Of a stretch of 64,000 nucleotides of DNA, positions 2,845 through 61,652 are shown in pieces. This stretch comes from Gallionella sp. (GTDB lineage Bacteria; Pseudomonadota; Gammaproteobacteria; Burkholderiales; Gallionellaceae). Both the position numbers and the translations under genes were made by a program. The stretch lies in assembly GCA_023259035.1 (NCBI GenBank), contig JAHFRA010000004.1, forward strand, positions 49,068 through 113,067. The letters are read 5' to 3'. Within the stretch, counting starts at the first letter, position 1. Each line of letters starts with the position of its first letter. The notes below the pieces were generated by a model. That model ran no database searches, was not told where the DNA came from, and saw only the letters and a program-made list of their open reading frames with translations.

Positions 2845-4199
2845 TGGAATATCTGTCGGTGGCGGCGGCGCAGCAATGTGTCCTTGAATCGGTCGTGGCA
2901 TTGGGCGCGGAGCAAGTGAAACTTGAACAGTCGCTGGGCCGTGTGCTGGCCGAGGAAGTGCGCGCCAACCGCGACCAGCCACCCTTCGACATATCGGCGA
3001 TGGATGGCTATGCATTGCGCAGTGCGGATCTGGCCGGTATTCCTGCCACACTGGAAATCATCGAAGACATCAAGGCGGGGGACCTGCCGACCAAAACGCT
3101 GACACCCGGCCAGTGCGCGCGCATCATGACCGGTGCACCGATGCCGCAGGGTGCGGATGCGGTGATCCGGGTTGAGGATACCGAGGCAAAACCGGATAAC
3201 CGCGTGCAGATCAATCTGGCGGTCAAATCGGGCAACGACATCCGCCGGCTCGGTGAAAACATGCGCAACGGCGAGGTGGTGCTGACCCCCGGTACTACGA
3301 TCACGCCGGGTGTGATCGGCGTGCTGGCGACTGTGAAATGCGCGCAGGTGCAGGTGTACCGGCGGCCGCGCGTGGCGATCCTGTCGACCGGCAACGAACT
3401 GGAAGGCCTCGACGAGCCTATTGATTTAAACAAGATACCCAACTCCAACAGCTACGCGCTGATGGGGCAGGTGCAGGCGCTCGGCATCGATCCGGTGCTG
3501 CTCGGCATCGCGCGCGACGACCCCGAAGAGCTGGCGCGCTATCTGCGACGCGGGCTGGAATACGACGTGCTGCTGGTTTCCGGCGGAACCTCGGTCGGCG
3601 TGCACGATTACGTCCGCCCGACCATCGAGGCGTTGGGCGCACAGATGCTGTTCTGGCGCGTGTCGATGAAGCCGGGACATCCGGTCGCGTTCGGCAAGGT
3701 TCCACCGACAAAAGTAGCCGAGGCGGATGCAGTGCAAGGCGCGAGGAGCGCAGCGACGCAGGCATATCTTGAAGATAGACAAGGAAGCGAGCACCGAGCA
3801 ACGCAGCAATGCGCCGCCGCAGGTACTTTTGTTTTTGGATTGCCGGGCAATCCGGTATCCAGCATGGTGTGCTTCGAGCAGTTTGTCGTGCCTGCATTGC
3901 GCCGCATGATGGGGTATGCGCGCACCTACCGCCGCACCATCGAGGCGCGGATGACGCATAACGTGAAGCACCAGCCGGGGCGCACCGAATTCATCCGCGT
4001 GTTGCTGGCGAAGGAAGCGGGCGGCTACGCGGCCACTTCCACCGGCGCGCAGGGCAGCGGCATGCTGCTGTCGATGGCCAGAGCGGACGGCTTGGCGGTC
4101 ATACCGGCCGACTGCAATGGATTGACGGCGGGCAACGCGGTAACGGTGCAACTGCTCGACGGTACAGTTTTTCAGGATGACGCAGGTTTCAAGGAGTGA
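2844..4199 (+). CDS. moeA: Molybdopterin molybdenumtransferase MoeA, with an internal ~40-aa insertion
   Basis: PPFDISAMDGYA, IMTGAPMP, STGNEL, GLPGNP; ATG overlaps mobA TAA. Confidence 0.93.
   Translation: MEYLSVAAAQQCVLESVVALGAEQVKLEQSLGRVLAEEVRANRDQPPFDISAMDGYALRSADLAGIPATLEIIEDIKAGDLPTKTLTPGQCARIMTGAPMPQGADAVIRVEDTEAKPDNRVQINLAVKSGNDIRRLGENMRNGEVVLTPGTTITPGVIGVLATVKCAQVQVYRRPRVAILSTGNELEGLDEPIDLNKIPNSNSYALMGQVQALGIDPVLLGIARDDPEELARYLRRGLEYDVLLVSGGTSVGVHDYVRPTIEALGAQMLFWRVSMKPGHPVAFGKVPPTKVAEADAVQGARSAATQAYLEDRQGSEHRATQQCAAAGTFVFGLPGNPVSSMVCFEQFVVPALRRMMGYARTYRRTIEARMTHNVKHQPGRTEFIRVLLAKEAGGYAATSTGAQGSGMLLSMARADGLAVIPADCNGLTAGNAVTVQLLDGTVFQDDAGFKE
3708..3832. repeat. 125-bp palindromic element inside moeA
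   Basis: Terminal inverted repeats ACAAAAGTA (3708-3716) and TACTTTTGT (3824-3832) with further imperfect pairing; ORF stays open. Confidence 0.8.
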
Positions 4200-4203
4200 A
4201 ATT

Positions 4204-4749
4204 ATGGGTGTTGCTCGAATCGGTATTCTGACCATTTCCGACCGCGCCAGCCGCGGCGAATACGAAGACAAGGGCGGCCCGGCCATCCACGCATGGTTCA
4301 CGCGCGTGCTGACCTCGCCGTGGCAGGCGGTGGCAAAAGTGATCCCCGACGAACAGCCGGAGATCGAAGCCGCGCTGCGCCAGTTAAGCGACGTGGAAAA
4401 TTGCTGTCTGATCGTCACCACCGGCGGCACCGGCCCGGCGCTGCGCGACGTCACGCCGGAAGCCACTGAAGCGGTATGCGAGAAGATGATGCCGGGCTTC
4501 GGCGAACTGATGCGCACCGCGTCGCTGAAATTCGTACCCACCGCGATCCTGTCGCGGCAGACCGCCGGGATACGCGGCAAGAGCCTGATCGTCAACCTGC
4601 CCGGCAAGCCTTCCGCAATCGACGATTGCCTGAATGCCGTGTTCCCGGCCATCCCGTACTGCATCGACCTGATCGAAGGCGCGTACCTGGAATCCGACCC
4701 GGAACAGTGCAAGGCGTTTCGACCGGCGCACGCCAAGCCGAAACTATAG
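4204..4749 (+). CDS. mog: Molybdopterin adenylyltransferase Mog
   Basis: TISDRASRGEYEDKGG, TTGGTGPALRDVTPEAT, NLPGKP. Confidence 0.93.
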   Translation: MGVARIGILTISDRASRGEYEDKGGPAIHAWFTRVLTSPWQAVAKVIPDEQPEIEAALRQLSDVENCCLIVTTGGTGPALRDVTPEATEAVCEKMMPGFGELMRTASLKFVPTAILSRQTAGIRGKSLIVNLPGKPSAIDDCLNAVFPAIPYCIDLIEGAYLESDPEQCKAFRPAHAKPKL

Positions 4750-4751
4750 CA

Positions 4752-5549
4752 ATGCCTGCCGCATGGCTTGCTCGAACGCTGTTGTTTTTCCTGCTGCTTG
4801 CGGGGCACGCGGCGCACGCGGGCGAAAAAATCACCATCGCCGCCGCCGCCGATCTGAAGTTCGCGCTGGACGAGATCGTTGTGCTGTTCGAGAAGGCGCA
4901 TCCCGCCGACCGGGTGGAAACTATCTACGGCTCGTCCGGCAAATTCCAGGCGCAGATCCGGCAGGGTGCGCCTTTCGACCTATATTTCTCCGCCGACATT
5001 GCCTATCCGCGAGCGCTTAAAGAAGAAGGCTTTGCCGCCTCCGAGGTGCAGCCCTATGCGGTGGGGCGCATCGTGCTGTGGAGCCCGTTGCGCGATGCCG
5101 GGAAGATAACGCTCACCGATCTTGCCGATCCAACAATCCAGAAAATCGCTATCGCCAATTCGAAGCACGCGCCTTATGGCAAGCGCGCGGAAGAGGCGCT
5201 GAAAGCATCGGGTGTGTGGGAGAAGGTGGAAGCCAAACTGGTCTATGGCGAGAACATCGCGCAGACCGCACAATTTGTGCAGACCGGCAATGCGCAGGTC
5301 GGCATCATCGCATTGTCGTTGGCGCTCAGCCCCGAGCTGGTAAAGCAGGCCTGTCCTGAGCTTGGTCGAAGGTGCGGGTATGCGCTGATTCCCGACAAGC
5401 TGCATCAGCCGCTGGAGCAGGGTTTCATCATCACCAAGCATGCTGCTGGCAATCCGCTGGCGCAGGCCTTTGCGAGTTTCATGGCGGGCAAGGAGGCGCG
5501 CATGGTGATGACGCGTTACGGTTTTGCATTGCCGGGCGAAGTAAAATGA
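4752..5549 (+). CDS. modA: Molybdate ABC transporter substrate-binding protein ModA
   Basis: Signal peptide; AAAADL, YGSSG, APFDLYFSAD, APYG. Confidence 0.93.
   Translation: MPAAWLARTLLFFLLLAGHAAHAGEKITIAAAADLKFALDEIVVLFEKAHPADRVETIYGSSGKFQAQIRQGAPFDLYFSADIAYPRALKEEGFAASEVQPYAVGRIVLWSPLRDAGKITLTDLADPTIQKIAIANSKHAPYGKRAEEALKASGVWEKVEAKLVYGENIAQTAQFVQTGNAQVGIIALSLALSPELVKQACPELGRRCGYALIPDKLHQPLEQGFIITKHAAGNPLAQAFASFMAGKEARMVMTRYGFALPGEVK
5349..5372. repeat. 24-bp repeat-family copy inside modA
   Basis: GCCTGTCCTGAGCTTGGTCGAAGG matches GCCTGTCCTGAGCACAGCCGAAGG (39015-39038) and the reverse complement of 61222-61243. Confidence 0.7.
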
Positions 5550-5581
5550 GTTGCTGCACTGTAGAGCCGACACAGCTTCTA

Positions 5582-60358: not shown

Positions 60359-60360
60359 TC

Positions 60361-60729
60361 GTGTCGCGTATGCTGCGTGCGGGGCTGATTTTATGGCTGG
60401 CGATGCTGTGCTCGCCAGCGGGTGCGCAAGCCTATCAGCCAGCGCAAGGCGGATTGTCGGCCATTGCGCTAGCCGAACTGCCCGGCGAGGCACGCGACAC
60501 CTTGCGCGCCATCAAACAGGGCGGGCCATTCGCATACCCGCGCGACGGCGTGGTATTCAAGAACTTCGAGCGCATATTGCCGAAGCGGCCGCGCGGCTAT
60601 TACCGCGAATACACTGTCAAAACGCCGGGGACGCGCAATCGCGGCGCGCGCCGTATTATCAGCGGCGAAGTGAGCGAGTATTATTACAGCGCCGATCATT
60701 ACCAAACTTTTAAACGTATTCGGGAGTAG
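60361..60729 (+). CDS. Exported guanyl-specific ribonuclease (N1/T1/barnase family)
   Basis: Signal peptide; GGPFAYPRDG, YYREYTV, GARRII, YYSADHY. Confidence 0.9.
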   Translation: MSRMLRAGLILWLAMLCSPAGAQAYQPAQGGLSAIALAELPGEARDTLRAIKQGGPFAYPRDGVVFKNFERILPKRPRGYYREYTVKTPGTRNRGARRIISGEVSEYYYSADHYQTFKRIRE

Positions 60730-60731
60730 CC

Positions 60732-61127
60732 ATGGACGCCTTGGCACAACAACTGAGCAATCAGGAAGCAGCGGGCAGCTATACGCTGGGATGCAGTGTG
60801 GAAACATTGCGCAGCGCGGTGGACGCAGCCGGGTTTACGCTTTTCGATGTGGATCTTAAAGGCGTCAAGGGTAAACAAAACCTGCTCAATGCCTTTTCCG
60901 TTGCGGCAAATTTCCCCCCCGAGTTCGGCGCGAACTGGGATGCCCTGGCCGATGCACTGTGTGACCTGTCGTGGCGCGAAGCAAAGGGTTATGTGCTGCT
61001 ATTGCGCAATGCCAGCAATACGCTTGGCCTTTCCGCCAACGACCGGGAAATCGCGCAGGATCTTCTTGCCGATACGGTGGTGTACTGGCGGCAGCGCAAT
61101 AAACCGTTCTGGATTTTCTTCACCTAG
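60732..61127 (+). CDS. Barstar-family inhibitor
   Basis: FGANWDALADALCDL. Confidence 0.88.
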   Translation: MDALAQQLSNQEAAGSYTLGCSVETLRSAVDAAGFTLFDVDLKGVKGKQNLLNAFSVAANFPPEFGANWDALADALCDLSWREAKGYVLLLRNASNTLGLSANDREIAQDLLADTVVYWRQRNKPFWIFFT

Positions 61128-61130
61128 CGC

Positions 61131-61652
61131 ATGACACTCTACAAGCGACCGGTTTCGGTGCTGGTAGTGATTCATACCGCTCCTTCGTCCTTCGATGCCT
61201 CAGGAGGCTCGGGGCAGGCCGCTTCGACAGGCTCAGGACAGGCTCGGGACATCAAGGTGCTGTTGTTGGAGCGCGCCGACCACCCCGGCTACTGGCAGTC
61301 CGTCACCGGCAGTTGCGAAGCGGACGAAACGCTGATTGAAACGGCGATACGCGAGGTTCGCGAAGAGACCGGGCTGAATGCTCGGCAACACGTGCTGACC
61401 GACTGGCAATTACAAAACGTCTATGAGATATATCCACAGTGGCGATACCGCTATTCCCCCGATATCACCCGCAATACCGAGCATGTGTTCGGTCTGCAAC
61501 TGCCGCATACTGTTGACGTCCAGCTTGAGCCGCTCGAGCACTTGAACTACCAGTGGCTGGCGTGGCAGGATGCGGCGGAGAAAGTTTTTTCGCCGAGCAA
61601 CCGCGCTGCGATACTGGAGTTGCCCGGGCGCGCGATCAGGAAAATGCCATGA
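61131..61652 (+). CDS. nudB: Dihydroneopterin triphosphate diphosphatase NudB with a 22-aa insertion
   Basis: [17 protein letters not shown] Nudix box [14 protein letters not shown]. Confidence 0.92.
61182..61247. repeat. 66-bp CTTCGAC-family composite insertion inside nudB
   Basis: Contains CTTCGACAGGCTCAGGACAGGC and a degenerate sister copy. Confidence 0.8.

Follow-up and report, generated by a model that had tools for sequence, protein, structure and literature searches.

How do the reading frames of several conserved enzymes in one stretch of the genome of an iron-oxidizing Gallionella come to hold palindromic repeats and still remain open? The stretch (64,000 nt; hereafter the window) is C58:49068-113067 of a metagenome-assembled genome (MAG; G000) of 2.88 Mb in 68 contigs with 55% G+C, for which the completeness and contamination are estimated at 94 and 4.9%, respectively; the nearest named relatives of the window MutY are Gallionella MAGs. 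The first-pass annotation, which was made from the letters of the window, had proposed nine repeat copies in frame within genes for six proteins, and NCBIfam names these as MoeA, ModA, AddA, AddB, MutY and NudB (AddA and AddB best match models of the alphaproteobacterial type, but score below the curated cut-offs). Eight of the nine sites are real lineage-specific insertions that are in frame, free of stop codons and 24 to ∼135 nt in length; the ninth, in AddA, matches no repeat family. We consider it likely that the inserts derive from six or more families (F1-F6) of short interspersed repeats (24-130 nt), hairpin or palindromic in form, that act as selfish DNA, and repeats of this kind are spread through Gallionella and related Betaproteobacteria.

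Orthologues of the host proteins were gathered from up to 30 relatives, 18 of which are of the same genus, and each host protein was aligned with those of 14-23 relatives; alignments were also made at the DNA level (individual relatives are given below by genome number). At the eight sites the orthologues mostly lack the insert or have other repeats in the same place. The motifs beside all eight inserts are intact, as the first-pass annotation had claimed; KPGHPxAFG and FGLPGNPVS in MoeA are examples. The moeA insert is an F5-type inverted-repeat element of ∼130 nt (3702-3833, plus strand; arms at 3701-3726 and 3814-3839) that adds a net 39 residues between KPGHPVAFGKV and FVFGLPGNPVS, and it is missing from all 20+ MoeA orthologues, even those with an 83-86% identical MoeA. 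The insert in modA (5350-5373, plus strand) is a 24-nt F3-type mini-element, CCTGTCCTGAGCTTGGTCGAAGGT, which encodes ACPELGRR; it is an exact 24-nt indel relative to G014, G010 and G006, shows no target-site duplication against these three and is missing in all relatives. A 99-nt F1 palindrome ('PPFAKGG') in addA (34794-34892, minus strand), the arms of which are 97% complementary, adds 33 residues to a variable helicase loop.

Three further inserts lie in addB, all on the minus strand. At its 3' end (36864-36998) a C-terminal extension consists of a AGGAGCAAGG-type run and then a complete F1 element, with arms at 36867-36904 and 36920-36957, and ends in a TGATG overlap with the start codon of addA; the addB of relatives stops ∼45 residues sooner, with a ATGGATAA overlap. 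A 125-nt F2 element ('SEDRGQKT...'; 37804-37928), the ends of which are 34-nt inverted arms (37804-37837 and 37895-37928), is missing in G012, G015 and G017 and has a related copy in G010. The third (38991-39068) is a composite, nested insert of F3/F6 type that is missing in all 14 relatives; as read by eye from the DNA alignment, its outer unit CCTTTCGACAAAGC...TCAGGGCGAACGG is broken by an inner hairpin, and the predicted fold has an energy of -38 kcal/mol (z = -4.8). The mutY insert (52031-52078, plus strand) is a 48-nt F4 element ('PRPAGERARERGG') that matches the F4 model with E = 4e-6; this exact 48-nt indel is missing in 20 orthologues, is common to G014 and is represented in G015 by a degenerate version of 42 nt. 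In nudB, a 66-nt F3-type insert (61182-61247, plus strand) lies close to the N-terminus; it is again an exact indel with family matches and is missing in ∼20 orthologues, and two relatives have shorter, unrelated inserts nearby. Peptides encoded by the inserts include IPPNPPFAK and GGLGGICNWWSR. The remaining proposed site, AddA 'site 1' (35284-35304, minus strand), is a G-rich segment encoding RGGGGCE that amounts to a seven-residue difference in a variable linker. It finds only itself in the genome, does not match the F4 model and belongs to no family, and it was therefore not confirmed as a repeat copy.

The families were defined by seed-based nhmmer searches of the genome; de novo clustering of 15-mers was dropped because it mixed true repeats with paralogous protein domains. 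Each of the six families has 8-30 loci in the genome and forms strong hairpins. F1 reads AAATCCCCCC-NNN-CCCCCCTTTTGCAAAGGGGGG and is mostly found as two inverted copies around a spacer that varies. F2 (∼125 nt) has arms of CAGAAGA/CAGAGGA units and two small GC hairpins, F3 and F6 (24-60 nt) share a GAGCCTGTCGAA / CTTCGACAGGCTCAGGACAGG core, F4 is a CCCTCTCCC-loop-GGGAGAGGG hairpin with a half copy ahead of it and F5 is ∼90-130 nt in length. None of the F1-F6 consensus sequences carries a GTAG or CGTC tag. A GTAG tag is carried by the classical repetitive extragenic palindromes (GTAG REPs) of the same genome, namely F8, F9 and a CGTAGCGTGCGC family, which serve here as a contrast class; an F9 dimer, of the class linked to REP-associated tyrosine transposases (RAYTs), lies at 52793-52908, and a second GTAG REP dimer, of F8, is at 42876-42962. 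A reversed F1 control pattern gave no matches in 151 genomes and the true pattern gave up to 117 copies; together with the copy numbers of the families, this shows that the repeats are more than chance. The distribution of F1 across the order is patchy (25 of the 151 genomes).

Sister copies of the inserts between genes had been proposed at 5582, 26405, 30594 and 62805, and all four were located: an F4 copy between modA and modB (5577-5620; C58:54644-54687 by nhmmer), which is a sister of the mutY insert; an F6 copy (26434-26479; C58:75501-75546 by nhmmer), which belongs with the F3 inserts to one GAGCCTGTCGAA-core superfamily; an F1 half-element (30593-30617); and a copy of the F3/F6 core at ∼62806. 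The genome G014 carries the same F4 hairpin at the same place between modA and modB. This matters for the suspicion that the inserts are misassembly or chimerism artefacts, which is natural for a contaminated MAG in many contigs, as repeats often break assemblies. Against it, the same repeats occupy the same sites in independently assembled relatives, not only the intergenic F4 copy (G014) but also the F1 insert of AddA (G010 and G006) and the F4 insert of MutY (G014), and the reading frame is unbroken through every insert, so that we regard an assembly artefact as extremely improbable.

The inserts occupy positions at which the proteins appear to tolerate them. In the AlphaFold model of MoeA (mean predicted local distance difference test score, pLDDT, of 86) the insert is a low-confidence excursion (pLDDT 49-59) between the confident strands 282-286 and 328-333, and residues 285/328 are also where alignments to solved structures of gephyrin and MoeA are interrupted. 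Similarly, the alignment of AddA to Bacillus subtilis AddA (3U44) has a gap between residues 658 and 706, into which the insert falls. The AddA loop is a hot spot that has been re-used by unrelated, species-specific palindromes. It contains F1 in three species (this genome, G010 and G006), is empty in G012, G015 and G017, all of which are closer relatives than G006, and is filled by other strongly folding palindromes in G013, G016, G009 and G007; the insert in G013 has 88 matches in that genome and none in ours. Across the genus, the linker and the C-terminus of AddB likewise contain repeat-like peptides of varied kinds (an automated tally of AddA and AddB inserts across the genus fragmented the segments and was not used). 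Between this genome and G010 the F1 arms share 94-97% identity, compared with 78% at the fourfold sites of addA and 47%, the random level, in the spacer. This pattern of arms and spacer implies turnover, re-insertion or gene conversion after speciation rather than a frozen relic.

The suggestion that several families insert into coding sequence, in the manner of the Rickettsia palindromic elements, could be followed beyond the window by a census with one nhmmer model per family. Hits on both strands were merged, and a copy was counted as genic if it had a stop-free frame and positive coding potential on both flanks according to a home-made gene model. About 33 in-frame genic copies were found genome-wide, and all six families contribute (F1, 8/19 loci; F2, 4/29; F3, 14/30; F4, 2/8; F5, 2/19; F6, 6/16), in contrast to 0/37 loci for the GTAG REPs (Fisher p = 2e-5). 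The number of open frames per element (of six) follows a similar division: 3.1-5.0 for F1 and F3-F6, ∼2.6 for F2, which is near the random expectation for the same length, and 0.6-1.7 for the GTAG REPs. The hosts checked with NCBIfam include MetH, Mpl, LeuS (at two sites), MetG, CysS, Pgm, Glk, ThyA, TrmB, RlmN, EarP, AceE, CusA, PepA, Era, a NuoF-like protein, HscA, CobQ, a family-4 uracil-DNA glycosylase, an arginyltransferase, PolA, GpsA and BioF; the hosts are intact housekeeping genes, most of which score over the NCBIfam cut-offs. Seven F2 copies are found within 17 kb at C9:8420-25017, a local concentration. In PolA (C7:366-3233, locus L237), three or more segments derive from repeats: one is an F3 copy (GPSTGLRTGL), and two are F4-type hairpins that encode SPASGRGAGGEGG...LSRLRERES.

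The genic copies are presumably translated as additional disordered peptide. The competing idea that they are removed before the protein is made, in the manner of an intron or an intein or by editing, draws on the strength of the hairpins, which might be processed, although nothing direct speaks for it. At 24-130 nt the inserts are too short for known introns and inteins, and an Rfam scan of the whole window gave no matches. Moreover, the eight copies in the window and the ∼33 genome-wide are in frame and stop-free, neither of which removal would need, and the MutY insert has been kept as coding sequence in G014. Removal is thus very improbable.

The other question raised by the hosts is whether the inserts are kept because they are useful, either by tuning AddAB, MutY and PolA (a mutator effect) or as structural signals in mRNA or DNA. 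Repair hosts do recur both here (AddA, AddB, MutY, PolA and the family-4 uracil-DNA glycosylase) and in the literature (PMC3733652), the F1 arms are conserved beyond the neutral rate and the AddB extension retains the stop-start overlap with addA. The first-pass annotation had stressed a concentration in DNA-repair genes, with nudB as a related case. This stands within the window; genome-wide, the hosts come from many housekeeping classes and repair or replication accounts for five of ∼35, a marginal excess (p = 0.01-0.14 depending on the background rate that is assumed); NCBIfam identifies NudB as dihydroneopterin triphosphate diphosphatase, a Nudix enzyme of the folate pathway and not of repair. 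The bias towards DNA-repair hosts is therefore weak, and the excess is explained in part by the length and the variable linkers of these proteins, AddA, AddB and PolA all being long with such linkers. A benefit also fits poorly with hosts of many unrelated functions and with close relatives that thrive without the inserts, and gene conversion among copies predicts conserved arms equally. Finally, F3 is read in several frames and in both orientations (APSTGSGQA, ACPELGRR, PVLSLSKG and FDELRTGF), and the reading of one DNA family in several frames means that no particular peptide is selected. We consider retention for usefulness unlikely.

The simplest reading of the genic copies is instead survivorship after widespread insertion of selfish repeats. 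Copies would insert everywhere and, within genes, selection would retain only those that keep the frame, contain no stop and lie in a permissive loop, linker or terminus. The survivors that we observe are indeed frame-preserving insertions in loops, linkers or termini, much as had been anticipated from the window alone. Families that are poor in stops in most frames would on this account become genic and the stop-rich GTAG REPs would remain extragenic.

What, then, moves the repeats? The first-pass annotation favoured mobilization in trans by HUH/RAYT-type enzymes, in which case the genic copies would be REPINs (paired REPs that form hairpins) served by RAYT transposases of the HUH/Y1 type. 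RAYT-REP is the established model for short palindromic repeats (PMC3733652), and a search of the genome did find three Y1_Tnp (RAYT) genes, on C17, C18 and C31. Each, however, is flanked by its own GTAG REP family (F9 for the C17 and C18 genes and the CGTAGCGTGCGC REPs for the C31 gene), which is the class with 0/37 genic loci. The genic families have no GTAG/CGTC tag and none of F1-F6 flanks any of the three RAYT genes; F1 and F4-like repeats are found beside genes for DUF559 proteins (DUF, domain of unknown function). Mobilization of the genic families by RAYTs is thus improbable, and the proposal does not hold for them.

The sole DUF559 gene of the genome (C67:37534-37857) runs straight into a 128-nt F1 element. 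The locus (C67:37321-37950) lies between a gene for a 966-residue protein and one for a 243-residue protein (4Fe-4S-like by eye) on the same strand, and the DUF559 open reading frame (ORF) has no stop ahead of F1 and reads through the repeat for ∼70 residues more. DUF559 genes were then inspected in 40 other genomes. ORFs of ∼120 residues have complete F1 elements on both sides, within ∼20-50 nt, in G074, G137, G145, G068 and the Gallionella genome G006, and six further genomes have one-sided cases or cases at contig ends. A second set has F4-like hairpins on both sides (G068, G137, G021, G102, G135 and the Gallionella genome G151), and F4-like hairpins adjoin DUF559 in G010 and G009. Altogether, over a dozen of the order's genomes show the linkage of DUF559 and repeat. 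The proteins linked to F1 are 51-65% identical to the DUF559 protein of this genome and those linked to F4 are 43-48% identical; by this measure the DUF559 subfamilies co-vary with the type of repeat, as REPs pair with RAYTs.

The DUF559 protein matches Pfam PF04480 with 117.9 bits (cut-off 20.6), and its profile matches PDB entry 3HRL (an 'endonuclease-like protein'; E = 1e-36) and, weakly, PDB entry 3R3P, the EDxHD homing endonuclease I-Bth0305I (E = 1e-3). The residues Asp33, Glu44, Asp46 and His50, which include the catalytic E-x-D...H signature, are invariant in 17 DUF559 sequences. A survey of PD-(D/E)XK proteins has grouped DUF559 with Vsr and I-Bth0305I (PMC3424549; PMC3239194), and the protein is accordingly predicted from its sequence to be a nuclease with a Vsr/EDxHD-like PD-(D/E)xK fold. 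In the literature that was searchable, no paper was found that links DUF559 to interspersed repeats, nor any on peptides encoded by the repeats. The assignment of DUF559 extends to F1 and F4-like repeats only: F2, F3/F6 and F5 have no enzyme partner that we could find, and no ORF in this genome is bracketed by copies of F2, F3, F5 or F6. F2 and F5 bear terminal inverted arms; by the criteria for miniature inverted-repeat transposable elements, no parent insertion sequence was found and five clean empty sites show no duplication. A link to Ssn-type GIY-YIG nucleases was also considered and rejected, as no repeat of these families lies within 800 nt of the single small GIY-YIG ORF (C58:41473-41720).

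For F1 (the AddA loop and the end of AddB) and F4 (MutY), the likely driver is a DUF559 nuclease encoded between two copies of its own repeat. The nuclease would cut at or near the hairpin, and subsequent repair or copying would spread and homogenize the repeat. Such a homing-like cut-and-copy route would fit the absence of target-site duplications, the conservation of the arms above that of neutral sites and the re-use of sites. More broadly, DUF559 with its flanking hairpins may represent a widespread and so far undescribed class of selfish module, a PD-(D/E)xK counterpart of RAYT-REP that spreads stop-poor repeats by homing-like copying and repeatedly writes loops into essential proteins at permissive sites such as the AddA loop; we put this forward tentatively, as a possibility rather than as the expected outcome.

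Several observations weigh against the reading of selfish repeats that are driven, in part, by DUF559. In this genome only one side of the DUF559 gene carries F1, and the ORF reads into that repeat, so that the gene may be decaying; no F4-linked DUF559 was found in this genome, the MAG being 94% complete; and three of ∼20 small DUF559 loci have no flanking inverted repeat. Linkage alone is no proof that DUF559 moves the repeats: they could be the targets of the protein, as is the case with Ssn-type nucleases, or its gene could be a favoured landing site. The five clean empty sites show neither a target-site duplication nor a common target motif. In the census, three of 35 host ORFs called by the home-made gene model look spurious by eye.

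The window and its surroundings contain other repeats. Between modB and modC (6356-6507) there are 16 tandem copies of a 9-nt unit, CACAGAGAT, with an inverted partner, TCTCTGTGTTCTCTGTG, ∼60 nt downstream at 6560-6576, so that one arm of an inverted repeat looks to have been expanded. A family of 55-75 nt (F10; nine loci, including 53844-53918 and 54962-55036 in the window, C57:6783-7475 and C58:22414-22971) brackets single small ORFs in series, like the attC sites around integron cassettes. Two direct copies of ∼90 nt (D7 and D9), both of which contain a perfect hairpin of 16 nt, are found at 45146-45331, just downstream of a gene ending at 45164. Finally, two 75-nt stretches (1773-1847, within the ORF 1748-2263, and 30455-30529, in the gap between the called genes 29488-30393 and 30645-31550) are 77% identical; they encode a P-loop-like motif by eye and look like paralogous gene remnants, not a repeat family.

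Repeats that are termed extragenic and yet lie in frame are best known from reduced intracellular bacteria; the present lineage, in which they are frequent, is environmental and free-living. The enzymes that are hit are essential ones, including three aminoacyl-tRNA synthetases, Era, ThyA, PolA and AddAB, so annotators and structural modellers should expect repeat-derived loops; the re-use of the AddA loop provides a natural map of permissive sites. Small repeats of cyanobacteria, the subject of work by Elhai et al. in 2008, are reportedly relevant in this context. The closest parallel is with the Rickettsia palindromic elements (RPEs; Ogata et al., 2000), which the account in PMC10969869 describes as in-frame palindromic repeats in housekeeping genes. 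As with RPEs and their Wolbachia equivalents, multiple palindromic families are found in frame in unrelated housekeeping genes, at tolerated surface positions and with intergenic sister copies. The hosts differ, as RPEs are found in reduced, intracellular bacteria and the present genome is that of a free-living betaproteobacterium with 2.9 Mb, and so do the elements, which are shorter here (24-130 nt), are read in several frames per family and encode no conserved peptide; the likeness is one of functional class. Intragenic GTAG/CGTC REPs have been reported in several species, many of them in UvrABCD, RecBCD and PolA (Di Nocera, De Gregorio & Rocco, 2013; PMC3733652). That work described different REPs at about the same recB site in two Xanthomonas, proposed the tolerance of linkers and loops and noted the repair bias. 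In our genome, by contrast, the genic families are tag-less and the GTAG REPs are strictly extragenic, the host is AddAB and not RecBCD, and at least two of the families are linked to DUF559. The betaproteobacterial repeat BRE (Hot et al., 2011; PMC3110155) is GC-rich, is ∼90 bp in length and has some copies that are wholly intragenic; blastn and nhmmer searches of the genome with two published Bordetella BRE copies gave nothing significant, and the families are thus different.

The linkage to DUF559 is the most useful result, as it offers a testable role for a large family of domains of unknown function, which would be, after the RAYTs, a second class of enzyme with a possible part in producing the short interspersed repeats of bacteria. 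The arrangement resembles that of REPtrons in that a small nuclease or transposase gene lies between inverted copies of a dispersed repeat and the subfamily of the protein varies together with the type of repeat. It differs in the fold, which is predicted to be PD-(D/E)xK and not HUH/Y1, and this genome contains true REPtrons as well, with repeats of other families. DUF559 shares its fold and the E-x-D...H signature with I-Bth0305I and Vsr (PMC3239194; PMC3424549), and I-Bth0305I drives the mobility of its own element; unlike I-Bth0305I, the DUF559 genes are free-standing ORFs of ∼120 residues between hairpins, in no intron or intein, and their nuclease activity is a prediction. Set beside these systems, what is new here is the host lineage, the number of tag-less families, the re-use of one loop by unrelated palindromes and, above all, the REPtron-like module with a predicted PD-(D/E)xK enzyme.

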